From positions 17,321-81,320 of the forward strand of contig JAOUMB010000001.1 in assembly GCA_029881725.1 (NCBI GenBank): a DNA stretch of 64,000 bases, in the 5' to 3' direction. A program made the translations under genes and the position numbers. This stretch comes from Nitrospirota bacterium (GTDB lineage Bacteria; Nitrospirota; JACRHL01). Positions within the stretch are counted from its first letter, which is position 1, and every line of letters starts with the position of its first letter. Positions 39,240-62,358 of the stretch are shown piece by piece. The notes beneath the pieces were generated by a model. It made no database searches. It was not told the DNA's origin and saw only the letters and a program-made list of their open reading frames with translations.

Positions 39240-39332
39240 GGAAGCTCTCAAATGATCCGGGATATTCCTTCGCAAACAGGTCCTGTATATCGTCGGATTC
39301 GTGTGGGCGATGCGGATACGAAAAGCGTCTGG

Positions 39333-40268
39333 CTACCAGTCGTCTTCCGTATAAAAATGAGCAGATATGCTTCCAGTTTTTTCCCGAATGCGCGCAATTT
39401 CCTCGTCAGTCAAACGTTTTTTCCAGGAATGGATCAGGTTGGAACTGTCCCTCCGAATCTCATGCTTCCCCTCGGTTTCCGAAGGATTTTCCGCCGATGT
39501 GTGGGCACGTATCACGTTCCGAACCTCGGGAGACAGAGATTCTCCAAGCGCCTGAAATACATCGCTGAAGCCACCCTCCGGATCCCGGGAAATGTCTTCG
39601 TGGCGAATAAATATCCAGTCTGGATGTCGATCGCGGTACCCGCGAATGGTCTCATGAATCAGATTCCACAGCAGGCAACCTTGGTCCACTATATTCATGT
39701 CCTGCGCAGCAAACTGCTCCAATTCACCCTTGAATTCACCTGCCATATCGCGCATGAACAAAGGCTGCCGGGTAAAATGGTCGAACGGGTGGGGCCATTC
39801 CGCCTTCTTCAGGCTGGAAACAAACGCCGCTGGATGCCGGATCATGGCGACAACCTGCATGTTGAACCGGCGCGCCAGCCATTCCGCTGAAAAAATGGCG
39901 ATCGGATCCTTTAGCAGCGGGCGGCGTCTCTCTCTTTTAAATAAACGGAACTCACGCCATTCCCAAAGTATTTTCATCATTTGCTTTGGACCCAGGCGTG
40001 GCGCCTGTCGCAGCCTTTCCATCGTGGAAAACGAAAACGTAACCGTGTCACAAAGCGCTTCATCAACCATTTCCGCATTGTCATCACAAATATAGGTGAA
40101 CCAAAGCGGAACATCGGCCCGGAACTGACCTCGGGAGTGGTTCACGTTAAACGGTTCGTGGATATACCCGAAGCGTGGGGATGCACAAAGCATCCGGCCC
40201 ACCCAGGTGGTTCCCGAACGATGTGATCCGGTTACCAGTACCGGTGAGTTTGTCCTGCCAGCGTTCAC
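39333..40268 (-). CDS. PAPS-dependent sulfotransferase family protein
   Basis: 5'-PSB-like P-loop VLVTGSHRSGTTW and downstream 3'-PB-like region (RHPAAFVSS). Lies in a lower-GC patch inside the glycosyltransferase operon. Confidence 0.75.
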   Translation of the reverse strand: MNAGRTNSPVLVTGSHRSGTTWVGRMLCASPRFGYIHEPFNVNHSRGQFRADVPLWFTYICDDNAEMVDEALCDTVTFSFSTMERLRQAPRLGPKQMMKILWEWREFRLFKRERRRPLLKDPIAIFSAEWLARRFNMQVVAMIRHPAAFVSSLKKAEWPHPFDHFTRQPLFMRDMAGEFKGELEQFAAQDMNIVDQGCLLWNLIHETIRGYRDRHPDWIFIRHEDISRDPEGGFSDVFQALGESLSPEVRNVIRAHTSAENPSETEGKHEIRRDSSNLIHSWKKRLTDEEIARIREKTGSISAHFYTEDDW

Positions 40269-40280
40269 TCCACATTCTCC

Positions 40281-40991
40281 TTACCCATTGGGAACTCCGG
40301 TTTCGGCTCCCGAGCGCTTCCCAAAGACCTTTCGAAACTGAGCAATGTCCTGAAAAGCAGGCGAAAGGGCCCTCAATTCCTCTTCCGGCAACTCCCACCA
40401 GCGGCTCTCCAGAAGAAAGCGGATATCGTCTTCCTCAAACCGGTATCGAATCAGCCGTGCCGGGTTGCCACCCACGATGGCGTACGGCGGCACATCCTTG
40501 GTAACCACTGCCCCGGCGGCCACCACGGCGCCTGTGCCAATGGTTACGCCACCGGGAATTATTGCCCGGTTGCCAATCCACACGTCGTGGCCGATCTCGG
40601 TGGGCAGCGGATCTTCGTCAAACCCCGGCCGGGTCACAAACGAGCAGCGGCAACCCGAGTTGTCCACCGAAAAAAAAGCCGGATAGGTGGACACGAAATC
40701 CCGCGCCGGGTGGCGGAACATGCCGATCTGCACCTCCTGCCCGATGGAGCAGAAGCGGCCCGCCCGCACATTGACCAGAATGGCCCCCTGCGCGGCATAC
40801 GAAAAATCCCCCAACCCGCTCCGAACCAGCCTGCTACGGTCGTGCGCCACCGAATGCCGCCCCAGGGTGCTCTCGATCACCCGCGCCCCGGCGGCCACCC
40901 GCACATTGCGCTCGGGCGTCGTCTGCCACATTTCCCTTCCGGTCAGCAGTCCCACGCCGCGACGCAGAATCCGCAACAGTCTCCGTATCAT
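40281..40991 (-). CDS. Hexapeptide-repeat O/N-acetyltransferase (xenobiotic acetyltransferase XAT / CatB-like subfamily)
   Basis: Start placed at MIRRLLRIL. Left-handed beta-helix repeats ([53 protein letters not shown]), which are XAT-like. Confidence 0.75.
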
Positions 40992-41004
40992 GGCGTCCTC
41001 CCCA

Positions 41005-42186
41005 TTATTTCGGGTCTCCGGCAATGCTCCGCCACAGTTTGCGAAACACGACCCGGATGACAAACCTGATGGCCGTGCGCGGCATGTATTTCGCGCAGAA
41101 TTCCTCGAACAGAAGGTGGTCGGACGGCGGTTTAAGGTTCGCGTCCCGCCGACACAGGATCAGGTCCTCCCCCTCAATCCCGTAGATGACGTTGGCAACC
41201 TCCGGTTTCATGCGCAACCCGAAACCCATCCGAGCAGTATTGCTCCTGCGTGTGGTCAGAACATATTCGGCGGCCACCTTGGAGAGGTCTTTCGAACCGT
41301 GCACGTCCACCGCATAGTCGTATCCCCGCAACCGGCCGGTGAGACGATTCAGCCGATCCGGGAGGATCTCGAAATGGGCGTCATACACCGCCACCGCCGA
41401 ATCCAGTGACTGAAACCGGAAAGGTGTTCCCTCCCGGGCCAGCGGCACCTGAAACATCAGGGTGGTCGACAGAAAGTGGGTCCCCGGTTCTCCTGTGTTG
41501 GTGGTCAGGCTTACTCGCGGAAAGACAAAATACCGGTCGCTCTCCACCATGTATTTGATAAAGCGCTTCAGCCACGAGCTGTCCGGCCAAGCGATGACCG
41601 AATCGGGCAACGGGTCGTCCTTGGATACCCCTTTTCCATCCCCATACCATTGCCGGAATGCGCTCCATTGGGTAGCGCTCCACGCCTGCCCCCAGGAGGA
41701 GGCAAACTGGATGAAAAACACGTCGCCCAGGTCGGGGACGGGGGAGAACGGCCTTGCCAGATAGGGAACCAGCGTGTGGCAATACAGCGAAATCCCGGCG
41801 ATGCGCGGGTCGTCACGGTAACTGTCCTGGGCATCCATCGTGTACCGGTAAAACGCGGGGGACACCAGCAGGTCATCCTCCAGGACGATAACCCCGCCGT
41901 ACTCCAGGGACAGGTCCCCACACGCGAGAATGTGCTCCCGCAGCCCCAGATTTTCCGGGTGTTCAATAATCCGTTTGGGGCCAAACCGCCAGTCAAACGC
42001 CCGTGCGGCCGTCGCCACCGCATCGGTATCGCTCTTGTCGATGCTGATGACCAGGGTCACCGGCTCCTCCGGATAGGCTGCCTGCGCCAGGGTACCCAGC
42101 AACCGGACGAGGGCGTCGGGGCGGTTATAGGCGGCCACCACAATGGCCGGGATTTTTCCGCTGTTCACGGTTTGTTGGTCGGTCAC
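41005..42186 (-). CDS. GT-A fold glycosyltransferase resembling eukaryotic-type N-acetylglucosaminyltransferase I (GnT-I / CAZy GT13-like)
   Basis: [22 protein letters not shown] ... [37 protein letters not shown] parallels the MGAT1 core (AVVVVACNRPEYL... VVEDDLEVAPDFFEYF...DPSLWCVSAW), including the EDD metal-binding motif. Assignment is from remembered family motifs, not a search. Confidence 0.6.
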
Positions 42187-42232
42187 GCGGCGCTCCCCCG
42201 GCGGCTGTGAATGGCTTGAATCCTCATGTCGA

Positions 42233-43159
42233 TTACCGGCCGATCAACATGGCAAGACGACCCACATAGTCCATCAATGGAGCGACTTCTTCGACCTGAT
42301 ACTGCTGCCAGTACGGATACCTTTCCCGATCTCTGAACCACACCTTGATCATGCCCTTGAAAACCAGTCTTCCTGCAGTCAGGAAAAACCGCCCAACCCA
42401 GTCTCGCCAACGCCAACCGTAATCTCCAAACAATACGTAACCTGACTTCCCGATCAGGTAACGAACCCTGAAATAATGGGGAACGGTCATTTTTCGGGGA
42501 GGCGCCAGGTGTTCCACCATCAATTCCGGATGGTAATACGCCTTTAACCCCGGTTTATATTCCCTGGCGTGGCGAATCAACAAGGTCTCCTCTCCAAACG
42601 CAAACGCATCCCCTTTTGGCCCGACCTCCGTATCAAACCCACCCAATTTATCAAGCAGGTCCTTCTGAAAAAACAGATTGGAGCCAGAAATATATTGTCT
42701 GTCATTCAGCCACCCCGGGGTATCCAGAACGCGGCGGATTTCATATTGGTCCTTAAACCACACAGGTCTGTTGGTCAGGTAAAACGGGTAGATCGATCCA
42801 CCGAAAATATCCGGCTCATGCTCGCGGATGATCTCAATCGCACGGCTGATCCAGTCGGGCATGGCACGGGCATCGTCATCCATGAACGCCACATAGGCGG
42901 CGCGCGCTTCGCGCCACCCTGCATTTCGGGCCACGCTGGCTCCCGGAACCGGCTCATCGATCACTTTGAAAAAAGGGTATTTAGCTGCATATTCCGCAGC
43001 AATTTCCGCAGTGTTATCGGTGCAATTGTTATTGACGATGATGACTTCATACTGGCCTTCGCATCCAACCTGCCGCACCAGCGAGTTAAAACAGCCGTCC
43101 AGAAGGTCCGCTCGATTATAGGTGGCCACCACCACGCTGATGATCGGGGTTCCACTCAT
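42233..43159 (-). CDS. GT2 family glycosyltransferase
   Basis: Start at MSGTPIISVVVATYNRADLL (ATG overlapping the upstream stop, ATGA). DXD-like FMDDDA. Lower-GC codon usage. Confidence 0.8.
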   Translation of the reverse strand: MSGTPIISVVVATYNRADLLDGCFNSLVRQVGCEGQYEVIIVNNNCTDNTAEIAAEYAAKYPFFKVIDEPVPGASVARNAGWREARAAYVAFMDDDARAMPDWISRAIEIIREHEPDIFGGSIYPFYLTNRPVWFKDQYEIRRVLDTPGWLNDRQYISGSNLFFQKDLLDKLGGFDTEVGPKGDAFAFGEETLLIRHAREYKPGLKAYYHPELMVEHLAPPRKMTVPHYFRVRYLIGKSGYVLFGDYGWRWRDWVGRFFLTAGRLVFKGMIKVWFRDRERYPYWQQYQVEEVAPLMDYVGRLAMLIGR

Positions 43160-44100
43160 TGGTTCCACAACTCCCTCTCAATCCATTTTCCCAGCCGGGC
43201 ACGAACCAGAGGAAACAGTCGGAATCCGGCCATGGAATCCAGAACCCCCGCAACGCTGGCCGGAGTACGGAAGGAGAAGAGGTCCAGTTTCATTGCCTTC
43301 AGAAAGTGGCTACGGGCTTCTGATATCTCACCCCCGGAATAAAGCTGTTCCGCACCGTGATAGTTGTGCCATGAGCGGATCCGACTCTCCTGACGCAACA
43401 CCCTCTGATCCCGGCACTGCCGAAAAAACCGTTCCAGAATCACCTCCCGTTCGCGCACAAACGGTATCCGGCTGCCACCGGTTTTGCTTTCATCATGCAG
43501 ACGAAACATCGCCAGGGGTTCATGCAGATACGCAAAATTAAAGGACAGGCTCGCCCGGTACCAGAAATCCACGTCCATCACGTAGTGAAGCGCCGGATCA
43601 AACGATTCCAGGGCATCCAAAACTCTGCGTCGGATAAACACGGTGGGTTGAAAGATAAAATTGCGGCACAATTGAACGGCCACATTAAATGGTCGGCTCT
43701 TCCACACCTGCTTTCGGCGCCCTTCTGCATCGATTACCGTCAAATCCGAATAAACCAGGTCCACTTCAGGGTGCTGCTCAAAATATTCCGCCACGCGCCA
43801 GAACGCGCCCGGCTCGTACAGGTCGTCCGAGTTCAGGTAGGCGACGATATCGCCGGTGCTCCTGCGCAACCCCTTGTTGATGGCGTCGGTCTGCCCGTTG
43901 TCCGGTTCGCTCACCCACCAGGCCAGCCGGTCCGCGTATTTTTCGATGACGTCGACGCTGTTGTCGGTGGAGCCGCCGTCCACCACCATGTATTCCAGAT
44001 TCGGATAATCCTGATCCAGCACCGAACGGATGGTTGCGTCCAGAAATTGTCCCTGGTTGAAGGACGGGGTGACGACGGAGATGCGGGGCATTTCAATCAT
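43156..44100 (-). CDS. GT2 family glycosyltransferase (third member of the ISxxTPxxN...VDGGSTD paralogue family)
   Basis: MIEMPRISVVTPSFNQGQFLDATIRSVLDQDYPNLEYMVVDGGSTDNSVDVIEKYADRL...YLNSDDLY shares the same block structure as the genes at 37411-39239. Confidence 0.8.
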   Translation of the reverse strand: MIEMPRISVVTPSFNQGQFLDATIRSVLDQDYPNLEYMVVDGGSTDNSVDVIEKYADRLAWWVSEPDNGQTDAINKGLRRSTGDIVAYLNSDDLYEPGAFWRVAEYFEQHPEVDLVYSDLTVIDAEGRRKQVWKSRPFNVAVQLCRNFIFQPTVFIRRRVLDALESFDPALHYVMDVDFWYRASLSFNFAYLHEPLAMFRLHDESKTGGSRIPFVREREVILERFFRQCRDQRVLRQESRIRSWHNYHGAEQLYSGGEISEARSHFLKAMKLDLFSFRTPASVAGVLDSMAGFRLFPLVRARLGKWIERELWNQ

Positions 44101-44106
44101 GCGGCG

Positions 44107-44988
44107 CTAGGAGAACAGGGAGTCGTAGTCGACCCGTTCAAACACATCCAGAAAACCGCCCTTGGTGGCGTTGTAAATACGAATTCCGTGCCGTTCGGCA
44201 TAGGTCCTTTGCCGGCGGTACCCTTCCCACATTCTGACCACGGCACTGGCCAGTTTGTCGTAGGGCCAGTCACCAACACCCGTATCTCCCGGTTGGGGGG
44301 GGAAGAAGTGCCGGTACCCTTCCTGGCCATATTTCAACCAATCATGGTCCATGCCGATCAGATAGATTTCACTGGCCCCCATGTACATCGCCAACTGGAT
44401 GCACATGACCGGCGTGGTTTGACACGAAGGCAGTGGACGGGTCAAGTCGAGTTCGAACCCTTCCACGGTGGGATCCACGTCCCCTCGCTGGTACAGATAA
44501 CGCAGATCCTTACCCGCAAACACGCCGCTTTCTTCCAGCGCCTGCCGGGCCTGCACCGGAACAAAATAGCTCTTTGCCCGCACCCGCTCGGATACACCGG
44601 AAACAAACTCCTGCACCCAGGGGTCGGACGCAATCTCCTTGATTTTCGGGTCCACCCCCACCCAATAGGTCGGGCTCCACCTGTCCAGCAGGGGTGAACG
44701 GTGGAACAGGTTGACCACAAAGGTGACTTCACCAAAAATGCGGGTCAGGTCGAGTTCGTTCAAGGAGGGTCCGTTGCCCAGAATAAAACAGCGCCGACCG
44801 TCCAGCGCCCCTTTGAGGTCGGCGTTGCGGCTCAGGGCTTTCCTTCCGCTGTCGCCAACCTCCTGGAGCCTCACTTCCTCCAGACGTTTCCGCTCCTGCG
44901 CTTGCAGCTTCCGATGGTGGGCCTCGACCAGGCCATGGGGCGTGATCCACCGGGCCATTCGGCGCATCGTTTGGGATATCCCTTTCAT
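44107..44988 (-). CDS. DUF115 / Maf (motility-accessory-factor)-like protein; candidate nonulosonic-acid (pseudaminic acid) transferase
   Basis: RCFILGNGPSLNELDL motif characteristic of the DUF115/MptE-like family, to which the Campylobacter Maf flagellin pseudaminyl-transferases belong. Start ATG overlaps the pseI stop (ATGA). Confidence 0.65.
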   Translation of the reverse strand: MKGISQTMRRMARWITPHGLVEAHHRKLQAQERKRLEEVRLQEVGDSGRKALSRNADLKGALDGRRCFILGNGPSLNELDLTRIFGEVTFVVNLFHRSPLLDRWSPTYWVGVDPKIKEIASDPWVQEFVSGVSERVRAKSYFVPVQARQALEESGVFAGKDLRYLYQRGDVDPTVEGFELDLTRPLPSCQTTPVMCIQLAMYMGASEIYLIGMDHDWLKYGQEGYRHFFPPQPGDTGVGDWPYDKLASAVVRMWEGYRRQRTYAERHGIRIYNATKGGFLDVFERVDYDSLFS

Positions 44989-46052
44989 TCAATCAGATCC
45001 CAGGATGCGGGGGTGCCGCGCCGAACACTACGGGTCACCCGCTTTCCCATCAATGTGCCAATGAACTTGGGGGGTAATCCATGTCCCGGTCGAATGGCAC
45101 GCAGGTTTTCCCCGGAAAAAGCCTCTCCCGCCTCCATATCCTTCACCACATAGAGAGAGCGTCGAAACCGGATGGAGGCCCGTTCTTTTTCGGTGGGGCC
45201 GTACGAAATGCTGCCCAATGCCTGCCAGGCCCGCTCACTTTCGACCACCAGCGCCTTCAGTTCACCCGGTTCCAGCGAAAAAGCGGAATCCACCCCGCCA
45301 TCGGCCCGCGCCAGGGTGAAGTGCTTTTCAAGGAGCGTGGCCCCCAACGCCACGCTGGCCACCGCCACCCCAACGCCCATCGTGTGGTCCGACAGCCCCA
45401 CCTGACAACCAAATAACTCCCGCATGTGGGGTATGGTGAGGATGTTGGTGTTTTCCGGGGTGGCCGGATAGCTGCTGGTGCATTTGAGCAGAATCAGGTC
45501 CCCGCAACCGGCCTCCCGCGCGGCGGTGACTGCTTCGTCCAGCTCGGCCACGGTGGCCATGCCGGTGGAGATGATCATCGGCTTTCCAGTGGCGGCCACC
45601 TTGCGGATCAAAGGCAGGTCGATATTCTCGAACGATGCGATCTTGTAAGCGGGAACGCCCAGTTCCTCCAGAAAATCCACGGCGGTTGCGTCGAACGGGG
45701 AACTGAACGCCACCAGCCCGCGCTCCTTGCACCGGTCCAGAATCGGCCGGTGCCATTCCCAGGGGGTATGTGCCTTCTGGTACAGGGCATACAGATTTTC
45801 TCCATGCCACAGGCTGGAGGGGTCATCGATGGCAAACTCCCCCTCCTTCAGGTCCAGGGTCATTGTGTCCGCGGTATAGGTCTGAAGCTTGAGCCCGTGC
45901 GCGCCCGCATCGGCGGCCGCATCGACAATCTCCAGCGCCCGCTCGAGGGACTGATTGTGGTTGCCGGACATCTCGGCAAGGACGAAGGGCGGATGAGCCG
46001 GCCCAACCGAAACCCCACCAACGGAGATGACTGTACTGTCTTTTTCCACCAT
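44985..46052 (-). CDS. pseI: Pseudaminic acid synthase (NeuB family)
   Basis: Start at MVEKDSTVISVGGVSVGP. FVLAEMSGNHNQSLERALEIVDAAADAGAHGLKLQTY, YKIASFE, LKCTSSYPA and GLSDHT motifs, plus a C-terminal SAF domain, closely parallel PseI/NeuB. Confidence 0.9.
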   Translation of the reverse strand: MVEKDSTVISVGGVSVGPAHPPFVLAEMSGNHNQSLERALEIVDAAADAGAHGLKLQTYTADTMTLDLKEGEFAIDDPSSLWHGENLYALYQKAHTPWEWHRPILDRCKERGLVAFSSPFDATAVDFLEELGVPAYKIASFENIDLPLIRKVAATGKPMIISTGMATVAELDEAVTAAREAGCGDLILLKCTSSYPATPENTNILTIPHMRELFGCQVGLSDHTMGVGVAVASVALGATLLEKHFTLARADGGVDSAFSLEPGELKALVVESERAWQALGSISYGPTEKERASIRFRRSLYVVKDMEAGEAFSGENLRAIRPGHGLPPKFIGTLMGKRVTRSVRRGTPASWDLIE

Positions 46053-46060
46053 TTCTCCTC

Positions 46061-46312
46061 TCACGCTCCGGATCGGGCTGGCACCACATGACGCATCAGA
46101 CAAAACGCTTCGGCAGCACCCGTGCCCACACTCGCTCCGCGCCAACGGGCCAAGTGTTCCACCGCTTCCCTGGAGCGAGCGTGTGGCCACGGTCTCATTT
46201 CCTCCTGGTAGCAATCCAGAGCCGCCAGCTTGATGGCCCCGCACGACGATACAACGTCAGCGAGAACCAGCGGAAAATCGGTAGCCACCACGTATGCCTG
46301 CTCGTCAGGCAT
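46061..46312 (-). CDS. Small hypothetical ORF (83 aa) filling the gap between pseG/H and pseI
   Basis: Start at MPDEQAYVVATDFPLVLADVV. Fills an otherwise unexplained 283-bp gap in a tightly packed operon. No motifs recognised; could be non-coding. Confidence 0.3.
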   Translation of the reverse strand: MPDEQAYVVATDFPLVLADVVSSCGAIKLAALDCYQEEMRPWPHARSREAVEHLARWRGASVGTGAAEAFCLMRHVVPARSGA

Positions 46313-46335
46313 CGTCTTTCGCTTTCCGCGGATGC

Positions 46336-47901
46336 TTAGCCCGCGGTTTCCGCAACAGGGTTTTGAACCCACAGCCCGTCTTTCCCCAACAGATATCCTT
46401 CACGTTCAAACAACATTCTGGAGCCCGTATTCTGATCCAGAATCTCCGCCTTGATCTCGGCGTACGGGACCAGTCTCCTGGCACACCGGATTGCTGCGCC
46501 TCCCACCCCCTGCCGCTGATGGTCCGGAGCTACAAGAAGGGAAACCTCGTACACGTCTCGGTTTTCTTCCCCCTCCAGGCTGTCGAGCCTTAATACCCCT
46601 GCTGGCTGCCGCTTATGTATCACAATATTCAGCAGGCACGACGGATCACTCAATCGAGACTTAAACCAGGACACATGCTCATCAAAAGACGGTACGCTCG
46701 GATTCCGGCAATGCGTCCGCATTCCCGGAGTGGACTGCCATTCAAATACCCGCTGAATATCCTCCGTTCGGGCCGGGCGCACCCACACCGGATTTTTATC
46801 GGTCGCGAACTCCGGAACCAGCCGCTGTCCCACACGCCCCGTCCCCAATCCGTCACACATCCTGGCCGCTTCCAGGGACATTCGGGTCAAGCGTTCTGGA
46901 TCTTCCGCAAGGTTCCTCAGTGAAGTCGCGATATGTTCCGGGTCCACACTCCGAAAATTCCCCAGGTTAACGGCTGCACCGGCGCGTTCCATGATGCCGG
47001 CGACCAGCATCTGGTTCTCTGCAATCACCAAAGTCATCGAAGGGAGCCCCATACAGCAACGTTCCCAGGAAGTGGTGCCAGCCGCCCCGATCCCGATGTC
47101 CGCGTGTGCCATCAACTCGGGTATGTTGCCCGGGCTCACATGTACGGCAACGTCCAGCGACGATTCCTCACACCAGTGTCGCACCACTTCCAGATGCGGT
47201 GCGCCATGCGCCAGAATGACATCCACGGTCCATTGAAATCCGCTTAAGGCGATCGCCTCGAGCACGGTTTTCGTCACGTTATCCGGATCCAAAGCCCCCA
47301 TGCCCACCAAGATGCGCGCAACGCCTTTACGTGATCGACGTCGGGCCAACGAAGTCGTCCGCACCTGATTGAACTCCGGCCGCAACAGTGCATACGCGCT
47401 ACCGGTCATCGTATGGGCGGATGGCGCCAAGGCCTGATAATCCCCCGGCAGACGCCCAAAGGTCTGATCCAGAAGCAAATCGCAATCGTGGTGCCGATCC
47501 GCCAGATCATCAATCACCATGATTCGCTCCACATGAGGACGCAAGACCCTCTCCCAATTGGCATCGATCGCGTAATGGTCCACGATCAGCCAGTCCGGAC
47601 GCACTGCCATTTCCCGGATAGCCCCCACCGTCTGCTCCGCGTCCATGGCCACGGAAGCACCCAGCCAGTGCGCATGCCCCTCCTGCCGGGCTTCCTCCTG
47701 GAAACCGTCGATTCCGGGCAGGCGGGAGACCGGATAGCTCCGTTCCCGCTCGACCCAATCACACAGGTTTCCCGGGTGTTCACGGAATATAAAATGAACC
47801 TGGTGCCCCTCCTCCCGAAGCCGGTCAGCCAGGGCCAGGCAGCGCATGACGTGGCCGGTACCAATCATCAGGGCGGCATCTGTGCGGAACACGAATTTCA
47901 T
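46336..47901 (-). CDS. pseG: Bifunctional PseG-PseH fusion: UDP-2,4-diacetamido-2,4,6-trideoxy-beta-L-altropyranose hydrolase (N-terminal, GT-B-like) fused to a GNAT N-acetyltransferase (C-terminal)
   Basis: N-terminus MKFVFRTDAALMIGTGHVMRCLALADRL is PseG-like. C-terminal about 150 aa has a GNAT fold with motif A QRQGVGGAAI. Confidence 0.8.
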   Translation of the reverse strand: MKFVFRTDAALMIGTGHVMRCLALADRLREEGHQVHFIFREHPGNLCDWVERERSYPVSRLPGIDGFQEEARQEGHAHWLGASVAMDAEQTVGAIREMAVRPDWLIVDHYAIDANWERVLRPHVERIMVIDDLADRHHDCDLLLDQTFGRLPGDYQALAPSAHTMTGSAYALLRPEFNQVRTTSLARRRSRKGVARILVGMGALDPDNVTKTVLEAIALSGFQWTVDVILAHGAPHLEVVRHWCEESSLDVAVHVSPGNIPELMAHADIGIGAAGTTSWERCCMGLPSMTLVIAENQMLVAGIMERAGAAVNLGNFRSVDPEHIATSLRNLAEDPERLTRMSLEAARMCDGLGTGRVGQRLVPEFATDKNPVWVRPARTEDIQRVFEWQSTPGMRTHCRNPSVPSFDEHVSWFKSRLSDPSCLLNIVIHKRQPAGVLRLDSLEGEENRDVYEVSLLVAPDHQRQGVGGAAIRCARRLVPYAEIKAEILDQNTGSRMLFEREGYLLGKDGLWVQNPVAETAG

Positions 47902-47994
47902 GCCTGCAACAAACGTCCTCTGTTCATCATTGTTCTAACTCCTGAATAGAGAGTGGATGTTTGCTCCAGCAAGGCACTCCCCTTGTGGTGCCCT

Positions 47995-48721
47995 TTAAAC
48001 GTGTTTTTGTCCCACATGGGCATTGATTTCCAACAGGGACGGACGGCTTCCAACCAGCCGCAATACGTCCGCATAGCCAAACCGCGGGTTATCCGGCCAC
48101 AGGGCCGCATAAACTTCCCGTATCAGGCGCAGGTCGTCCGGCTCGTCCACCGTCCAGCGCAGGTGGCTATGATCCTCCGAATCCACCAGGTGCCCCTGCG
48201 GAAAGCGCTCCGGGCGGCGCCAGATGAACGGGGTCACGTGTTCCCGCTCCCCCGGCTCCACGGCCTCCCGGCTGGCGGCTTCCAGCGCGTCCCGGCTGAA
48301 CACCTCCACATCCAGCCCGCGTGGAAACGTCCGCTGGTGACAGTTGGACACATAGGCCACCGCCGGGGCAGCAGCCGCATACGCCTCCACACACCGATCG
48401 ATCACCTGGGGATCGATCAACGGACAATCGGACGTGATCCGAACCACCACGCCAGCTTTCGCCGCCTGCGCGGCTCCCTGATACCTGGCCAGCACATCGT
48501 CCGTGCTGCCGCGCCATACCGAAACGCCCAATTGTTCGCACAGGGCCAGGATAGGTGCTTCCGTTCCATCGTCGGTGGTGGCGATCCACACCTGTTTCAA
48601 GCGGGAGGCGCGTCGCACCCGTTCCAGCACGTGCCACAGCAGCGGTTTTCCCTGCAGGTCCATCATCACCTTGCCGGGCAGCCGCGTGGAGGTCATGCGC
48701 GCCTGAATGATGGCGACCACT

Positions 48722-48729
<8 letters not shown>
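47995..48729 (-). CDS. pseF: Pseudaminic acid cytidylyltransferase (CMP-sugar synthetase family)
   Basis: VVAIIQARMTSTRLPGKV ... VRITSDCPLIDP motifs of the NeuA/PseF family. GTG start at 48729 (or 48720) adjacent to or overlapping the pseC stop. Confidence 0.8.
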
Positions 48730-52177
<3,448 letters not shown>

Positions 52178-52186
52178 GGTCCGCTA

Positions 52187-53023
52187 CTACACCAGATCCG
52201 CATAGGTGGCTTCCATGCGCCGGAACATGTACGCACCCAGCACCAGGAAAAACAGGGAAATCCCCACCGACCCGTACAGCGCCGGGTTGGGTGGCGTAAC
52301 CGTCGAAAACATGCTCCAGCGGGTCAGTTCGATCACCCCCACCACCGGGTTTAACCCGTACAGCCACTGCCATTTTTCCGGGATCATCGACAGTGGATAA
52401 ATGACTGGTGAGGCAAACATTCCCACCCGAACGATAAACGGCACCAGTTGCCCCACGTCCCGGTATTTGATGTTCAGCGCGGAAAAGCACAGCCCAACCC
52501 CCAGCGCCGAGACCCAAGCCCACACCAAGCCCAACGGCACCGCCCACAGGGCGTGCCAACTGGGCACCATGCCCTTCAACAGAGTGGCCGCCAGCAACAC
52601 CAGTATCGCCACCAGCGCATCCACCAGTGGCACCGCGGTGGCGGCCAGGGGCGTAATCACCCGTGGAAAATAGACCTTGGTCAGTAGCGCCCGCTGACTC
52701 ACGAGCGAGTTGGAGACATCCGCTAACGCCGAGGCGAAGAAGGTCCAGGGAATTATCCCGGCCAGGAAAAACAGCGGGTAGGGGATGTCTCCCGATGGCA
52801 TGCGCGCCCAGATGCCAAAGATGATCGAGAAGATGACCGCCATCAGAACCGGGTTCAGCACCGCCCACATCAGCCCCAGCGCGGTCTGCTTGTAGCGCAC
52901 CGACACGTCGCGCCACACCAGTTGCAGCAGCAGTTCACGGAACGACCACAATTCCGAAAAGCGGAACGGGTGGACTCCGGTGGCCGGGGAGATGACCGTT
53001 TCAGTGTCGGCTCTGGAGGTCAT
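52187..53023 (-). CDS. wzm: O-antigen/polysaccharide ABC exporter permease Wzm (ABC-2 type)
   Basis: Start placed at [11 protein letters not shown] (overlaps the fcl stop). Six TM segments. Motifs such as ELWSFRELLLQLVWRDVSVRYKQTALGLMWAVLNP are typical of ABC-2 permeases. Confidence 0.8.
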   Translation of the reverse strand: MTSRADTETVISPATGVHPFRFSELWSFRELLLQLVWRDVSVRYKQTALGLMWAVLNPVLMAVIFSIIFGIWARMPSGDIPYPLFFLAGIIPWTFFASALADVSNSLVSQRALLTKVYFPRVITPLAATAVPLVDALVAILVLLAATLLKGMVPSWHALWAVPLGLVWAWVSALGVGLCFSALNIKYRDVGQLVPFIVRVGMFASPVIYPLSMIPEKWQWLYGLNPVVGVIELTRWSMFSTVTPPNPALYGSVGISLFFLVLGAYMFRRMEATYADLV

Positions 53024-53988
53024 CCCCGCACCGTGCCCTTCTCCCGCTCCGCGTGAAAATCCGCCACCGACTGGCGCACGCCGTCTTCCAGGCCGATGGT
53101 TGGCGTCCAGCCCAGCGCGGTGAGCCTGGACGTATCCAGCAGCTTGCGCGGGGTGCCGTCGGGTTTCGTCGCATCCCACACGATGTCGCCGGTAAAACCG
53201 GTGAGCTTTTGCACCAGCTCCGCCAGTTCACGGATAGAGATGTCCTTGCCCCATCCGGCGTTGATGAGCGGCATGGCGTCCTTGTCCGCATGCACCCGAT
53301 CGGCCAGATACAGGCAGGCGTCGGCCAGGTCGTCCACGTGCAGAAACTCGCGGCGCGGGGTGCCGGATCCCCACAGGGTGACGGTAGCGTCGCCCCGCTC
53401 GGCAGCTTCGGTGAACTTGCGGATCATGGCCGGCAGCACGTGGGAGCCGTTCAGGTCGTAGTTGTCGCCAGGGCCGTACAGGTTGGTGGGCATCACCGCG
53501 ATGTAGTCGGTGCCGTATTGCCGGTTATAGGCCTCGCACATGGAGATTCCGGCAATCTTGGCCACCGCGTAGGGGGCGTTGGTGGGCTCCAGCGGGCCGG
53601 TCAGGAGGTGGTCCTCCTTCATGGGCTGGGGGCACTCGCGGGGGTAGATGCAGGAGGAGCCGAGAAAGACCAGCCGCTGCACCCCGGACTTCCACGCCTG
53701 ATGAATCACGTTGTCCTGAATGGCCAGATTGTCGCGGATGAACTCCGCGGGAAAGGTGTTGTTGGCCAGGATTCCGCCCACTTTGGCGGCGGCCAGAAAC
53801 ACCACCTGGGGCCGTTCGGCGGAAAAGAAGTCCGCCACGTCGGCCTGACAGGTCAGGTCCAGTTCGGCGCGGGTGCGGGTGATGATGGATTCAAAGCCCG
53901 CCGCCGCAAGGCGCCGCACCAGCGCGGCACCCACCATGCCGCGATGGCCCGCCACGAACACGCGGGCCGTTTTGGCCAGTTCGCTCAT
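53020..53988 (-). CDS. fcl: GDP-L-fucose synthase (GDP-4-keto-6-deoxy-D-mannose 3,5-epimerase/4-reductase)
   Basis: [22 protein letters not shown] and YAVAKIAG motifs. Full-length WcaG/Fcl similarity. Confidence 0.9.
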
Positions 53989-55064
53989 TCGTGATGGACC
54001 CGCGTATCAATGGTGTGCCCGGCTTTTTTGAGGGTGTTCTCCCGCTCGGCCAGATCCAGATCGTGATCCACCATCATCGCCACCAGCCCGTCGATGTCCA
54101 CCTTCGGGTCCCACCCCAGCACCTTTTTGCTCTTGGTGGGGTCGCCCAGCAGCAGTTCCACCTCGGCGGGACGGAAGTAGCGGGGATCGATCTCCACGAA
54201 CTGCTCCCAATCCAGTTCCAGCCGCCCGAATACCTTCTGCACGAATTCGCGCACCGAGTAGGTCTTGCCGGTGGCGATCACAAAATCGTCCGGGGTGTCC
54301 TGTTGCAGCATGCGCCACATGGCTTCCACATAATCGCCCGCAAAACCCCAGTCGCGCTTGGCGTCCATGTTGCCCAGATACAGCTTGTCCTGAAGCCCCA
54401 GCTTGATGCGGGTGGCGGCGCGGGTGATCTTGCGGGTCACAAAGGTTTCGCCGCGGCGGGGGGACTCGTGGTTGAACAGGATGCCGTTGGTGGCAAACAT
54501 GTCGTAGGCCTCCCGGTGGTTCACCGTCTGCCAGTAGCCGAATACCTTGGCCACCGCATAGGGGCTGCGCGGGTGGAACGGGGTGCTTTCGGTCTGCGGG
54601 GTTTCACGCACCTTGCCATACATCTCGGAGGAGCAGGCCTGATAAAAGCGCACCTCGTGCCCGGTGCGGTCCCGGTAGTCCCGCAGGGCCTCCAGCAGGC
54701 GCAGGGTGCCCACCGCCACCACGTCGGCGGTATACACCGCTTCGTCGAAGGACACCTTCACGTGGGACTGGGCGCCCAGGTTGTATACCTCGTCCGGCTT
54801 CACCTGCTCCACGATGTGACGCAGGTTGGCACCGTCGGCCAGATCACCGTAATGCAGAAACAGGCGCGCCCCCTTCTGGTGCGGATCCTGATAGATATGA
54901 TCGATGCGCTGGGTATTGAAGGTGGAGGCGCGGCGGATGATCCCGTGCACCTCGTACCCCTTGTCCAGCAGCAACTCGGCCAGATACGAGCCGTCCTGTC
55001 CGGTAATTCCGGTAATCAGTGCAACCTTGCGTTCACTCGACACGATGTCCTCCACACGCGACAA
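53985..55064 (-). CDS. gmd: GDP-mannose 4,6-dehydratase
   Basis: [50 protein letters not shown] and [10 protein letters not shown] are canonical Gmd. 4-bp overlap with fcl. Confidence 0.95.
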
Positions 55065-55154
55065 TCCACCGGTAATGCTCCGGCGCCCAACGCCGAATAT
55101 TCCTCATCGGAAGGTCAGACGCATCCGTTCACACATTCGACACGCCCGAATCAT

Positions 55155-55169
55155 TGTTCACCATGTGAA
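55155..55169. promoter_or_regulatory. Perfect 15-bp inverted repeat GTTCAC-cat-GTGAAC in the 284-bp gap upstream of gmd; candidate operator
   Basis: gttcaccatgtgaac read directly, about 90 bp upstream of the gmd start codon on the transcribed side. Confidence 0.3.
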
Positions 55170-55348
55170 CATAGTGCGAATTCGTGCTCCTGTCAACTCC
55201 CGCAAACGCCGGGAAGCGGGTGGTTGGGGCGTGCGGAAGAGAGCGGGCCGAGGCACGGGGTTAAGGGCCGTGCGGCCCTGCGGGCGGCGCCGGGGACAGA
55301 CAGCGGGAAGCGGCGGTGAAGGGGAACAAATGCGTCCGGGGACGCGGA

Positions 55349-55960
55349 TCAATCCCTGTGGATCAATTCCTTTTTGCGCAGGTAATCGGTGAGCTGCTGC
55401 ACACACTCCTCCGGAGAAAAGCGGTCGGTGTCGAGCACCACGTCCGGGTTGAGGGGTTCCTCATAGGGATCGGAGATGCCGGTGAAGTGGGCGATCTTGC
55501 CCGCCCGAACCTTTTTATAGATGCCCTTGGGGTCGCGGGATTCGCACACTTCGATGGGGCACTTGACGTACACCTCGTGAAAGTCGTCGGCGCCGATGGT
55601 CTGGCGGGCCAGATCCCGGTCCGAGCGGTAGGGGCTGATGAACGCGGTGAACACCACGATGCCCGCGTCGCAAAACAGCTTGGCCACCTCCGACACACGG
55701 CGCAGGTTTTCGGTACGCGCCTCGGCGGTAAAGCCCAGGTCCCGGTTCAGCCCGTGACGCACGTTGTCACCGTCCAGCACGTACACCCGCACCCGACTCT
55801 CAAACAGGGTCTTGTCCATGGCGTGGGCCAGCGTGCTTTTGCCGGAGGCCGAGTAGCCGGTCATCCATACCACGCCGCTTTTGTGGCCGTTGAAGCGGTT
55901 GCGGTCGGCGCGGTTGATGAGTCCTTCGTGCCAGGTCAGGTTGCGGTCGTCTTGTGACAT
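55349..55960 (-). CDS. cysC: Adenylyl-sulfate (APS) kinase
   Basis: Start placed at MSQDDRNLTWHEG. GVVWMTGYSASGKSTLA P-loop, LDGDNVRHGLNRDLGF and FISPYRSDRD are canonical CysC motifs. Same strand as, and directly upstream of, the gmd...GT4 operon. Confidence 0.9.
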   Translation of the reverse strand: MSQDDRNLTWHEGLINRADRNRFNGHKSGVVWMTGYSASGKSTLAHAMDKTLFESRVRVYVLDGDNVRHGLNRDLGFTAEARTENLRRVSEVAKLFCDAGIVVFTAFISPYRSDRDLARQTIGADDFHEVYVKCPIEVCESRDPKGIYKKVRAGKIAHFTGISDPYEEPLNPDVVLDTDRFSPEECVQQLTDYLRKKELIHRD

Positions 55961-56129
55961 GATGCCGGGATATCTGAGGTTAACAACAACAAAAAAAACG
56001 GGGATTCCGGACATTCACGGACACCCCGCCGCCCCACCCACCCCACCGAACGTTAGTGGAGCGGCAAAAAAGTGTCAACTACAGGCCGGCCGTGTCGGGT
56101 ACCCTGTTCGGCTGCGAGATCGTACCACG

Positions 56130-57302
56130 ATGCCAACCCACTCCCCCACCCCTTTCGACGCCGCCGTAGTCGGCGCCGGTCCCGCCGGATGCATGGCGGC
56201 GCGGCATCTGGCGGCGGCGGGGCTGAAGGTGGCGCTGATCGAACGGCAGCCCCTGCCACGCTATAAAACCTGCGGCGGCGGGCTGGTGGGGCGCGCCGTG
56301 CGCCTGCTGCCGGAGTCCGCCCTGAGGGCGGTGGAGTCCGATTGCCACCGGGCCGCGCTGCACTTGGCCGGTTCCGATCTGGCGTTTACCGCCGAACGCG
56401 CCCATCCCATCGTGCGCATGACCATGCGCGCCAACCTGGACGCCGCCCTGGCCGGGTGGGCGGTGGCCGCCGGAGCCACCCTGATGGATGCGACGCCGGT
56501 GACCGGCGTGGTGCCCGGCCCCGGCGGCGTCACCCTGCACACCGCGAGCGGTGCATTGACGGCCCCGGTGGTGATTGCCGCCGATGGCGCCGGGGGGCTG
56601 CTGTCGCGCACGGTACGCACCGCCCCCGCCCGCATGGGGCCCGCCGTGGAATGGGAAATCCACGTGCCCGATGCCGACCTGGGCCGCTTTCAGGACATCG
56701 CCCGCTTCGACGTGGGGATTGTGCCTCACGGCTATGGCTGGGTATTCCCCAAGGGCGACCACCTGTCGGTGGGGGTGTTCACCGGGCGGGCGGGGCGCAT
56801 GAACCTGCACCGGGCCACCACGGACTATCTGAACCGGATCGGCCTCACCCGCATCACCCACGCGGAGCGCCACGGCCACCGCATCCCCGTTCACCCCGGC
56901 AAGGGACCGTTCGCCGCCCACGGCATCCTGCTCACCGGCGACGCTGCGGGGTTTGCGGAACCGGTTACCGGCGAGGGCATTTCCGCCGCCCTCGAGTCCG
57001 GCCATCTGGCCGCCCGGTCGATCCTTGCTGCCCAGGGTGACCCCACGGGCGCCATGCGCCGGTACGTGGCCGACATCGAAGGAACCATACTGCCGGAACT
57101 GGCCGCCGCGCGCCGTCTGGCCTGGCTCCTGTATGCCTGGCCGCCGTTCACCCGCCAGGTGTTTGCGTATGGGGGGCAACGGCTGTGCGAGCGGGTGGCC
57201 GATGTAATGGCGGGCACCCTCACCTGGCGCCAACTGTTCCGGCATCCGTCAGGCTTTCGACTCCCCCCCGGCGCTGCCAAGCCGACAGTGTCGAAGGAAT
57301 GA
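56130..57302 (+). CDS. FAD-dependent oxidoreductase of the geranylgeranyl reductase family
   Basis: Start at MPTHSPTPFDAAVVGAGPAGCMAARHLAAAGLKVALIER (GxGxxG). Internal GDAAGF FAD motif. Confidence 0.75.
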   Translation: MPTHSPTPFDAAVVGAGPAGCMAARHLAAAGLKVALIERQPLPRYKTCGGGLVGRAVRLLPESALRAVESDCHRAALHLAGSDLAFTAERAHPIVRMTMRANLDAALAGWAVAAGATLMDATPVTGVVPGPGGVTLHTASGALTAPVVIAADGAGGLLSRTVRTAPARMGPAVEWEIHVPDADLGRFQDIARFDVGIVPHGYGWVFPKGDHLSVGVFTGRAGRMNLHRATTDYLNRIGLTRITHAERHGHRIPVHPGKGPFAAHGILLTGDAAGFAEPVTGEGISAALESGHLAARSILAAQGDPTGAMRRYVADIEGTILPELAAARRLAWLLYAWPPFTRQVFAYGGQRLCERVADVMAGTLTWRQLFRHPSGFRLPPGAAKPTVSKE

Positions 57303-57367
57303 TCCCGCTCCCGGCCGCACCGGGCCAGGCTGCTTTCCCCGAACGATTTGGCACCCCACGCCACGGA

Positions 57368-57494
57368 CGGTGTCGCGAAGCGATTTCTCTCCCGGTCGTA
57401 CCGGGCCGACGGTGTCGCGAAGCGATTTCGCTCCTGGCCGTGCCAGGCCGATGGTGTCGCGAAGCGATTTCGCTCTCGATCGCACCGGGCGGGT
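57368..57494. repeat. Three tandem copies of a 42-bp unit (plus a degenerate fourth copy at about 57303-57367), each with a 12-bp palindrome AGCGAttTCGCT and a second short hairpin
   Basis: Units begin GGTGTCGCGAAGCGATTTC(G/T)CTC. The second half reads CCGGTcgtACCGG in copy 1 and CTGGCcgtGCCAG in copy 2, i.e. the stem is preserved by compensatory changes. Located 80-200 bp upstream of cysS. Confidence 0.75.
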
Positions 57495-57571
57495 TTGCCA
57501 TGGGGGTGTGGGGGGGATTATCCTGTGCGGCTGATTTCCTCATTTTTATCGCAGTCCTGCAGGGAGCATAC

Positions 57572-59119
57572 ATGCGCGGTCGCCCGCTGAACCTGTTCAA
57601 CAGCATGGGTCGGGAACTGGAGCGATTCCAGCCGATCCGTGATACCGAGGCCCGGGTCTACTCCTGCGGTCCCACGGTTTACAACTATGCGCACCTGGGC
57701 AACCTGCGCGCCTATGTATTCACCGACACCCTGCGCCGCACCCTGATGCTCAAGGGGCTGGACGTGGTGCACGTGATGAACATCACCGACGTGGGCCACC
57801 TGACCTCCGACGCGGACGCCGGGGACGACAAGATGGAGTCCGCCGCCGCGCGCGAAAAGAAAACCGTGTGGGACATCGCCGCCTACTACACCGGCGCCTT
57901 CCACGCGGATGTGGAACGGCTCGGCATTCTGCCCCCCACCCAGGAGCCGAAGGCCACCGACTACATCGACAAGATGATCGCCTTCGCCCAGAAGCTGGAG
58001 AAGGACGGCCACACCTACACCATCGGCGACGGCCTGTACTTCGACACCACCACGGTGAGCGATTACGGACACCTGGGCTGCCTGGACCTGGAAGGGCAGG
58101 AGGCGGGCTCCCGCGTGGAGATGGCGGAAGGCAAACGGAACCCCACCGACTTCTGCCTGTGGAAGCGCACCCCGGCCGGCGTGAACCGCCTGATGGAATG
58201 GGACAGCCCGTGGGGCAAAGGCGCTCCCGGCTGGCACCTGGAGTGCTCGGTGATGAGCATCGACCTGCTCGGCGCCCCGTTCGACATCCACACCGGCGGC
58301 ATCGACCATCGCCAGGTGCATCATGTGAATGAAGTGGCCCAGAACCAGGGCTACACGGGCGACCGGCACAGCGGGGTCAACCACTGGTTGCACAACGAGT
58401 TCCTGGTGCTGGGCGAGGACAAGATGTCCAAGTCCAAGGGCGGCTTTTTGCGCCTGCAAACCTTGCTGGACCAGGGCATTCACCCGCTGGTGTACCGCTA
58501 TTTCTGCCTTCAGGCCCACTACCGCAAACCGCTGGTGTTCAGTTGGGACGCGCTGGTGGCGGCGCGGGCCGGATTGAAACGCCTGCTGATGCGGGTGGAA
58601 ACCCTGCGCCAGAAGGCCGAGAAGGAAGGCTTCGACGCCGCCAATCCGCCGGTGCTGGAACCGGGCTCCGAGAATGCCAGCCGCTCCCTGGGCACCCTGT
58701 CCGACGCCATTACCGAACCGCTTTCCAAGGCCGGGCGGGAGTGGGTGGACAAGCTGGACGAGGCCCTGTCCGACGATCTGAACACCCCGCAGGCGCTGGC
58801 CTGCCTGAACGAACTGGCGTCCGCCAAAAAGCTGCCCGCGGAGGATGCGTTGCGCCTGTTCGCGCTGTACGACCTGGTGCTGGGACTGCGGCTGTTGAAG
58901 CTCGACCCGGCGGAACTGGTGATCCGCCCCCGGGACGCGCCGCTGAGCGATGCGGAAATTCAGGAGCGGATCGCCGCACGGGTGGCCGCGCGCAAGGACA
59001 AGGATTTTGCCAAATCCGACGCCATTCGCGATGAACTGGAGGCCATGGGCATCGTGCTGATGGACGGTGCCGACGGGACCAGTTGGGAATGGCGGCCCAT
59101 GCTGGGCGCGCCATCCTGA
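57572..59119 (+). CDS. cysS: Cysteine--tRNA ligase
   Basis: Start at MRGRPLNLFNSMGRELERFQP (AGGGAG SD). HIGH-type CGPTVYNYAHLGNLRAY and KMSKS (KMSKSKGG) motifs. Longer C-terminal region than E. coli CysRS. Confidence 0.9.
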   Translation: MRGRPLNLFNSMGRELERFQPIRDTEARVYSCGPTVYNYAHLGNLRAYVFTDTLRRTLMLKGLDVVHVMNITDVGHLTSDADAGDDKMESAAAREKKTVWDIAAYYTGAFHADVERLGILPPTQEPKATDYIDKMIAFAQKLEKDGHTYTIGDGLYFDTTTVSDYGHLGCLDLEGQEAGSRVEMAEGKRNPTDFCLWKRTPAGVNRLMEWDSPWGKGAPGWHLECSVMSIDLLGAPFDIHTGGIDHRQVHHVNEVAQNQGYTGDRHSGVNHWLHNEFLVLGEDKMSKSKGGFLRLQTLLDQGIHPLVYRYFCLQAHYRKPLVFSWDALVAARAGLKRLLMRVETLRQKAEKEGFDAANPPVLEPGSENASRSLGTLSDAITEPLSKAGREWVDKLDEALSDDLNTPQALACLNELASAKKLPAEDALRLFALYDLVLGLRLLKLDPAELVIRPRDAPLSDAEIQERIAARVAARKDKDFAKSDAIRDELEAMGIVLMDGADGTSWEWRPMLGAPS

Positions 59120-59307
59120 TTGCGGACGGAGAGGGGAATCGGGGGATGACGCGTCCCCCCGCGACGGCTGCCACGGGCCACCCGCCGAAGGGCGCGCCCC
59201 GCCGCCTGCCGCCGGTAACGCGCGGTGCCCCCCACCCGACCCGCCCGATCCGCCCGACCTGGGGTGGGATGGACCACCCAGGACCATAAACCGGTTTACC
59301 GCGCCCG

Positions 59308-61299: not shown

Positions 61300-61673
61300 G
61301 CGCGACGGGCTCGGCCATCGGGCCGCCTGCGCGACGATGCGCCTCCATCCGGGTGGGCAACCCCGGCGAATTCGGTAACCCATCCGTAAATTTCCCCGTT
61401 ATTAACCGTTAACGCACCGGTAACTTAGCCCGGTGCTAGGCCACAGGTGCTGCGTGCACGGCGATCGTGGCTGGTACGGTAATTTGGCCCTGCGTCGGGC
61501 AGCGCCTGGGGAGCCTCCCTTGAACCGCCACAACACTTTGCTTTTTAAAAAAACACCCTCCCCCAATCCAACCGTGAGGGAGCCAAAATTCCCGCTCCCC
61601 CGGCACCCCCCATCCACTGCAGGGGGGCGCTCCAACCGTCCCGATCGCCGTGCGCGCAGCCCCTCCACAAGGC

Positions 61674-61866
61674 CTCTTTTTTTCCACATTTTCAACGGGT
61701 TCTGAATTTTCGCCCAAAATTCCCCGGTTCATCCCCCTGGAATCGTGCTACCGGCCTTCAGAACCCATTGATATTCCGTTCCGAGGTCACCGTGAACATG
61801 CGAAATCCACGGTGCGAAACGCTTCCACAAAGCCATTTTTTTCCAACATTTTCAATTGGTTCTGAA
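61674..61866. repeat. Repeated motif TTTTTTCCA(A)CATTTTCAA(c/t)(g/t)GGTTCTGAA (copies at about 61674-61706 and 61841-61866, partial at 61937-61970) plus a perfect 10-bp inverted repeat GGGTTCTGAA (61697-61706) / TTCAGAACCC (61757-61766), inside a roughly 1.06-kb noncoding gap
   Basis: Read directly. This region has distinctly lower GC than the flanking genes and no credible ORF. Confidence 0.4.
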
Positions 61867-62358
61867 CGCGAAAACCGTTATTTTTCACCGTGTTTCACTT
61901 CGCAACCACAAACGCGAATTGGTCCAATAAAACAATCAGTTCTGACTTTCCAGCCAACATTTTGCGAAACAAATCCGCCGCGCCCACAAACGGCCAAAAA
62001 CACCACGTTGTCAGGGAGTTATGCCCGGTGGTTTGCCGTGGCCCACGGTTTAGCTTTGCCGTTTGCGAAGCGAAATCGCACGATTCGGCCTGGTCCACAC
62101 CCTCAGGCGGCGCCGGGCGCGGCCTAGGTTTCGCGTTATAACCCGTTGATGGTTCGAACCACGAAGCGATCTCCGGCGCCAGAAACGCGGCATACGCCGG
62201 AAACGCAGGGGGAGGTCAACCAGCGGCTGCCAGGCTGGGGCGTGTCACGGTGGTGTGGGCGCCGGGCCCGGAAATGCCGCCCGCGCCCGTGGGCCCCAAC
62301 GGCGGCCACCCGCCCCGGCACCTCCGGCCCACACCATCCCACACCGGGCCGGGACCGC

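Follow-up and report, generated by a model that had tools for sequence, protein, structure and literature searches.

MIRUs are tandem units of 40-100 bp that lie between co-oriented genes and carry GC-rich internal inverted repeats (PMC3184786). Their ends overlap the adjacent ORFs, the homologous site in sister species is empty, and about 40-50 loci are present per genome, for which insertion by transposition is suspected (PMC3184786). REPs, which carry a conserved 5' GTAG at the foot of the hairpin, are reported to raise mRNA stability and to cause termination (PMC3479197). The arrays of type III antitoxins (ToxI, AntiQ and CptI) are made of direct tandem units of ~34-45 nt, in 2-6 copies, upstream of a gene; in these toxin-antitoxin loci the array is followed by a Rho-independent terminator and then by the endoribonuclease gene (PMC5086642).

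We analyzed an array of 42-bp units between a geranylgeranyl reductase family gene and cysS of a Nitrospirota bacterium, within a window of 64,000 nucleotides (the whole stretch of DNA under analysis, from whose first letter all positions are counted). A preliminary description of this DNA had reported the array and proposed several functions for it. By its layout the array is closest in architecture to a minisatellite of the MIRU/VNTR type. The likeness consists of a tandem unit of 42 bp with GC-rich inverted repeats, set between co-oriented genes of the + strand, of an outermost unit (U0) that overlaps the end of the reductase ORF, and of a site that is empty in relatives. The differences from MIRUs are that the array is here one locus in 64 kb, locally duplicated in appearance, that the host belongs to another phylum (Nitrospirota), and that a coupled small ORF is unsupported, with flat GC by codon position and, in front of cysS, a Shine-Dalgarno-like sequence and a promoter-like block of its own.

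With REPs the array shares a GC-rich extragenic stem-loop between genes of the same orientation, together with the action proposed for it below, that of a 3' stem-loop on mRNA stability or termination (PMC3479197). A REP-like element was among the suggestions of the preliminary description, and this assignment fails on GTAG, orientation and copy number in 64 kb: GTAG is absent from U0-U3 on both strands, all units are direct at a spacing of 42 bp with no REP/iREP pair, and the single locus in 64 kb is not high-copy. Were the density like that of E. coli, by our estimate one BIME in roughly 13 kb, the 64-kb window should contain about 5.

The unit size, the copy number and the same-strand position upstream of a gene recall type III antitoxins. 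The array differs from these in that no terminator follows it (0 sites in 56800-57900), in that the downstream gene is the housekeeping gene cysS and not an endoribonuclease gene of the ToxN, AbiQ, CptN or TenpN type, and in the conserved promoter-like block between array and gene. A phased array of operators, iterons or activator sites is similar in its dyad-bearing direct repeats, set integral helical turns apart and abutting a -35 element; it differs from the present array in that there are no other sites in the window, half of the unit is a variable hairpin, and the array is absent in relatives with the same promoter. Unlike a T-box or a known cysS leader, the array lies upstream of the promoter-like block and not between promoter and start codon. 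Rfam returned no match at the gathering score or at E<=10, in agreement with the earlier statement that the array corresponds to no known cysS leader.

The array and its flanking genes

The features of the region, all on the + strand, are as follows.

56130-57302, + strand: geranylgeranyl reductase family FAD oxidoreductase gene, 390 aa (NCBIfam TIGR02032, 201 bits against a cut-off of 158.8)
57284-57326, + strand: unit U0, 43 nt, diverged, with the hairpin CCCGG-CCGCA-CCGGG at 57310-57324
57327-57365, + strand: spacer of 39 nt, possibly a decayed unit (CGAACGATTTGGCACC compared with CGAAGCGATTTCGCTCC), the similarity not being significant
57366-57407, + strand: unit U1, core AGCGATTTCTCT with one mismatch, 6-bp stem CCCGGT/ACCGGG at 57391-57405
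57408-57449, + strand: unit U2, core AGCGATTTCGCT, stem CCTGGC/GCCAGG at 57433-57447 with two compensating pairs relative to U1
57450-57491, + strand: unit U3, core intact, stem degraded (CTCGAT/ACCGGG)
57495-57524, + strand: promoter-like block, TTGCCA at 57495-57500, N18, TATCCT at 57519-57524
57562-57566, + strand: Shine-Dalgarno-like GGGAG, separated by 5 nt from the cysS ATG (the relative L004 likewise has AGGGAG)
57572-59119, + strand: cysS, cysteine--tRNA ligase, 515 aa (TIGR00435 equivalog, 416 bits against a cut-off of 340)

The array was the top-scoring tandem repeat of the 64-kb window in Tandem Repeats Finder (57366-57490, period 42, 3.0 copies, 84% matches, score 187), the runner-up scoring 64, and U2 and U3 were 86-88% identical to U1 in a repeat search. 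The 19-mer GGTGTCGCGAAGCGATTTC occurs three times in the 64-kb window, against 0.01 expected. The tandem hairpin-bearing units that had been placed between the oxidoreductase gene and cysS are real (3.0 x 42 bp), and the reported 42-bp spacing was reproduced as a period of exactly 42 bp, with units that abut. The spacing equals the unit length and no cas gene is present among the called neighbor genes, which bears out the view that the array is not CRISPR-like.

The same CysS was found in ENA ERZ27296367 and in Logan SRR7132271, which come from independent assembly pipelines, and 351 nt across the array are 100% identical in both; the array is therefore not an assembly artifact. The 390-aa call for the reductase gene is also found in contigs L002 and L003. 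CysS is 100% identical to the NCBI protein 'MAG: cysteine--tRNA ligase [Nitrospirota bacterium]', with the next relatives at 68-70%. One population is on record, represented by three identical assemblies, the CysS of the next relative being 70% identical. Strain variants of the array were sought through CysS and the acyltransferase, and these look-ups led back to the same two contigs alone; for the reductase and three other proteins of the window no record was found.

Each unit had been described as containing a 12-bp palindrome. This claim had to be revised, in that the core AGCGATTTCGCT is intact in only two of the three units, U1 carrying AGCGATTTCTCT with one mismatch, and in that the core is not a true 12-bp palindrome, being made of inverted arms of 5 nt that flank TT. 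The first 19-22 nt are invariant in the three units, whereas the hairpin half diverges by 24-47%; among U1-U3, the first part has 2 variable sites in 25 and the hairpin part has 8 in 17 (Fisher p=0.008).

We scanned the window and several public collections for additional occurrences of the unit. Within the 64 kb, nhmmer recovered nothing outside this locus at E<1, and the 19-mer did not recur elsewhere with up to 3 mismatches. A scan of genome representatives with a core of 20 specified bases yielded one match, located in the CDS of an HTH protein and reading VSRSDFA, and a scan of metagenomes with the 19-mer yielded five single matches in unrelated contexts, one of them in a CRISPR spacer, which is about the chance number; the species itself is apparently absent from both of these large DNA collections. 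A viral scan gave 0 matches, and blastn against plasmids and phages gave no match. The search for the core and the 42-mer that the preliminary description had proposed as a check for a dispersed repeat ended with a single locus in the 64-kb window and with collections that were at chance level or empty. The CRISPR-spacer match (L013, positions 1430-1448 of JGI Ga0209697_10082945) places GGTGTCGCGAAGCGATTTC inside a spacer of an array with the repeat GTTTCAATCCACGCCCCCGCGTGGGGGGCGAC and stops at 19 nt; it is probably a coincidence, since the match count of the scan equals the chance prediction.

The genes called at ~36-62 kb include those for polysaccharide synthesis, an APS kinase and an acyltransferase, and no transposase (including Y1/RAYT) or regulator gene was found among them. 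The stretch 36000-56000 holds a large cluster of the polysaccharide/O-antigen type with many GT2 glycosyltransferases, a sulfotransferase and NeuB, together with CMP-sugar synthase-like, Wzm/Wzt ABC transporter and GDP-mannose dehydratase-like genes, and the GC content dips to 0.55-0.60 at 38-48 kb within this cluster. On the other side of cysS, 188 nt separate it from the acyltransferase gene, and this gap carries a 9-bp tandem repeat of 3.2 copies (CCCGCCCGA, 59231-59259). About 1 kb downstream of the acyltransferase gene (61300-62350) there is no convincing ORF and the GC content is lower; the ENA contig ends inside this region. Two copies of a 53-nt direct repeat, at 61654-61706 and at 61814-61866, are 79% identical here, with the core TTTTTTCCA(A)CATTTTCAAnnGGTTCTGAA, and the arms of a 23-nt inverted repeat, at 61445-61467 and at 61642-61664, are 91% complementary. 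The region also contains inverted copies of TTCAGAACCCATTGA and gave no Rfam match at E<=1.

Relatives, the probable cysS promoter and the unit at the gene end

Four relatives (L004, L007, L017 and L018), with CysS proteins 61-70% identical to the one studied here, have the same order of FAD oxidoreductase gene and cysS. The gap between the two genes measures 73, 92, 59 and 83 nt in these relatives compared to 269 nt here, and neither the array nor any unit-like sequence was found in the gap in any of the four. The ~190 extra nt sit between the reductase stop codon and the conserved promoter-like block, which begins 3 nt past the end of the array. A search of 56800-57900 for sigma-70-like sites yielded TTGCCA-N18-TATCCT as the sole site (1 found compared to 0.1 expected). 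The two closest relatives, L004 and L007, share this block. L007 has the identical TTGCCA-N18-TATCCT followed by TGTGC..GGC as in the window; L004 has TTGATT-N17-TATCCT, which overlaps its stop codon, with TATCCT and the flank TGTGC..GGC again as in the window. On these sequence matches, TTGCCA-N18-TATCCT is probably the promoter of cysS. A sigma-54 promoter in the spacer was also considered (TGGCAC, 57349-57354) and was rejected by eye, the GG-to-GC spacing being 10 and not 12.

The two genes keep their order (55349-59119 of the window), and it is not apparent how the reductase and cysS would be connected in function. A divergently oriented APS kinase gene adjoins the oxidoreductase gene here as well as in L004 and L018, and is not among the called genes of L007 and L017.

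In addition to the three clean units, one degenerate unit had been reported. A diverged fourth unit does exist, at 57284-57326, while the adjoining 57327-57365 is not significantly unit-like, its score being reached in 142 of 2000 shuffles and in 9% of background windows. U0 was recovered by nhmmer at E=0.005 with a profile built from U1-U3, and its global alignment score of 45 was reached by none of 2000 shuffles and none of 9088 background windows. It is composed of the final 19 nt of the reductase CDS, that is, part of the sixth codon from the end, the last five codons and the TGA stop at 57300-57302, followed by 24 nt with the hairpin. A possible older unit inside the CDS (57242-57283) was marginal only, with p ~0.05.

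A unit that lies over the stop codon is what a duplication of "gene end plus hairpin" predicts, and the continuity of U0 with the gene end fits a local duplication and does not fit a foreign insertion. No terminal inverted repeats around the array were found in the repeat search. The reductase gene of L004 ends in a similar GC hairpin, CCGGG-CCGGA-CCCGG, with the common sequence CACCGGGCC; the hairpin half of U3 is followed by GGGTTTGCCA, and the L004 hairpin by GCAGTTTGATT. As far as the sequences can tell, the array is a lineage-specific local duplication of the gene end and its hairpin, located in the 3' region of the reductase gene.

Stem pairing, folding and coding potential

The stem-loop reads CCCGGT-CGT-ACCGGG in U1 and CCTGGC-CGT-GCCAGG in U2. 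The two units differ at five positions, four of which make two compensating pairs in the 6-bp GC-rich stem (C28-G38 to T-A, and T31-A35 to C-G). In a simulation, two compensating pairs arose from 5 random changes with P ~5e-5 when any substitution was allowed and ~5e-4 with transitions only. The compensation between stem arms noted in the preliminary description is therefore real between U1 and U2 (two pairs), but it does not extend to U3, where the stem is broken. The U3 stem CTCGAT/ACCGGG has one A.C mismatch and one G.U pair, with an energy of -2.0 kcal/mol compared to about -9 in U1 and U2 (-9.1 to -9.3 kcal/mol, 6 bp with a 3-nt loop); the value for U0 is -8.2 kcal/mol (5 bp). Altogether the stem is well paired in three of the four units (U0-U2; 5 or 6 of 6 pairs). 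Read as + strand RNA, a clean unit is predicted to form GUCGC-GAA-GCGAU and the 6-bp GC stem, at -15 to -17 kcal/mol per unit.

RNA structure and covariation had been suggested as a check. In the alignment of the four units, 93% of stem cells pair, compared to 27-36% with the partner columns slid, and two pairs are double-changed; the folding energy of the whole region is ordinary against shuffles, with z = -0.96 on the + strand and -0.16 on the - strand. The double-change count was equalled by 68 of 500 shuffles, a weak control with n=4 sequences.

The preliminary description took the compensation as a sign of selection for base-pairing, which is only one reading of it, given four copies, changes that are all transitions, the 68 of 500 shuffles and the possibility of template switching. 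Template-switch correction of quasi-palindromes can produce compensating changes in one event and without selection (PMC8794818). Among the variable sites of U1-U3, 8 of 10 are transitions, and all four compensating changes belong to this class. The changes at sites 27, 28, 30 and 38 are C to T or G to A within CCGG tetranucleotides, and two of them, C28T and G38A, are of the cytosine-deamination type and each affect the inner C of a CCGG site. In U0-U3, positions 31 and 34 occur in all four possible combinations, implying that mutations recurred or that the units exchanged sequence by conversion. Avoidance of CCGG restriction as the force behind the stem changes was rejected, the observed/expected ratio of CCGG being 1.02 in the window. 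Across the window, GCCGGC (observed/expected 0.30), CCCGGG (0.48) and CTAG (0.33) are in deficit against a maximal-order Markov model, and this may reflect restriction-site avoidance.

No intrinsic terminator was found in 56800-57900 (0 sites), and a U-tract is absent after every hairpin; the counts of terminator-like sites across the window are close to those in shuffles and are for this reason uninformative. None of the three + frames is interrupted across the array. The reductase stop codon shares bases with an ATG at 57299 (ATGA), the frame of which runs into cysS; the cysS frame is open over 57185-57571, through the array, and every unit contributes a TGT Cys codon to it. We found no coding signature in the array frame, where GC by codon position is flat at 0.61-0.71; the flanking genes have GC3 values of 0.80-0.87 and GC2 values of 0.42-0.57. 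An open frame of 91 codons has an estimated chance probability of ~0.12 at this GC content, and the frame started by ATGA is likely a chance product of GC-rich DNA. A coding repeat or an N-terminal extension of CysS was rejected on the flat GC by codon position.

Proposed origin and competing explanations

The explanation that we favor, tentatively and with somewhat less than even confidence, is that the array is a locus-specific minisatellite of gene end plus hairpin, the stem-loops of which act in a REP-like manner if they act at all. The ancestral layout would have been that seen in the relatives, namely the gene end, a hairpin (in at least one relative) and the cysS promoter. A segment of 42-43 bp, comprising the last codons of the reductase gene, the stop codon and the GC-rich hairpin that follows, would have been duplicated in tandem and, between the stop codon and the -35 box, expanded to at least four units. 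The array would be non-coding and, if transcribed, would belong to the reductase mRNA as a 3' untranslated or intercistronic segment, in which serial 3' stem-loops may bar 3'-5' exonucleases or read-through and so insulate cysS; cysS itself would be driven from its own promoter downstream of the array. Either selection or a template-switch correction acting on the quasi-palindrome would have kept the stem paired in U0-U2. We infer both the transcription of the array and any effect on RNA ends. Since one hairpin would be enough for the proposed role, the expansion itself may be neutral. The stem-loop role does not account for the near-invariant first 25 nt as against the variable 17-nt hairpin part.

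The array might also be a neutral VNTR, expanded by slipped-strand events or unequal recombination, with a stem compensation that stems from the mechanics of mutation and not from selection. We regard this as possible, if doubtful. It is consistent with an array that is lineage-specific and absent in 4 of 4 relatives, with the broken stem of U3 and the ordinary overall folding, with the predominance of transitions (8 of 10 variable sites) and the C to T or G to A changes in CCGG at 27, 28, 30 and 38, with the four combinations at positions 31 and 34, and with a pairing that one template-switch event could fix (PMC8794818). Uniform neutral decay, however, predicts something other than an invariant first half of 19-22 nt next to a hairpin divergence of 24-47%; CCGG is not depleted in the window, and 3 of 4 stems are still well paired. 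A dispersed mobile family (REP/BIME/REPIN, MITE or true MIRU) with a chance cluster at this locus would likewise explain an extragenic, GC-rich stem-loop between co-oriented genes and a homologous site without array in the relatives. Such a family is nevertheless very improbable, in view of the lack of a second copy in 64 kb at nhmmer E<1, of GTAG, of an inverted partner or terminal inverted repeats, and of a transposase/RAYT domain among the called genes at ~36-62 kb; furthermore, U0 is continuous with the gene end, and five public collections were at chance level or empty.

In a protein-binding array, the invariant first half GGTGTCGCGAAGCGATTTCGC, in which half-sites alternate as TCGC-N3-GCGA-N2-TCGC, would serve as an operator or activator site that recurs every 42 bp (four helical turns) and regulates cysS. 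Such sites would be centered near -62, -104 and -146 relative to the predicted cysS start. In favor of this reading are a period of exactly 42 bp, an array whose end lies 3 nt short of the -35 hexamer, internal dyad symmetry in the core, and strong conservation of the first half relative to the second (Fisher p=0.008). We consider this explanation unlikely all the same. The relatives have the promoter without such a site, so the site was not part of ancestral cysS control; the core is found nowhere else in 64 kb, no regulator is present among the called genes at ~36-62 kb, the core of U1 is mutated, and binding does not predict the compensation in the adjacent stem. A regulon search with the dyad GCGAA-N5-TTCGC gave 6 matches compared to 3 expected, and the array itself contributed three of the six. 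A structured 5' leader controlling cysS was also among the earlier suggestions; such a riboswitch-like RNA, for example T-box-like or with a Cys-codon leader peptide, is the explanation to which we give the least credence. The position upstream of cysS on the same strand agrees with it, as do the TGT Cys codon per unit in the cysS frame and a frame open from the ATG at 57299. Against it stand the location of the array upstream of the conserved promoter-like block, the four relatives without an array, the empty Rfam search (E<=10) and the folding z of -0.96 and -0.16; moreover, the putative leader peptide would have no stop before cysS, its frame lacks a coding signature, and 91 open codons are expected by chance at the estimated ~0.12. 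No single hypothesis accounts alone for the constancy of the first half together with the variability of the hairpin half. A further reading is a young cis-regulatory module, with three phased invariant cores of 19-22 nt and adjacent structure-conserved hairpins read by a putative protein as DNA or as RNA of the reductase 3' UTR, and we judge it improbable, though well ahead of a leader RNA or a mobile family.

Overall, the feature is real and looks ordinary, a local tandem repeat and not a new regulatory system. As it stands, the array merely adds to the list of intergenic minisatellites, here from the MAG of an uncultured Nitrospirota bacterium, and is of little consequence. It provides a clean example of the birth of an array, with the fourth unit still on the stop codon and an empty site in the relatives, and it illustrates that, when only a few tandem copies are compared, compensating stem changes argue weakly for a functional RNA. 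Should the core turn out to be a binding site, the locus would represent a de novo regulatory array beside an essential tRNA-synthetase gene. If the cis-regulatory module were the true reading, the array would confer a lineage-specific control of cysS or of the reductase mRNA that is absent in the relatives, and a regulatory array would have been caught arising from the duplication of a gene end.
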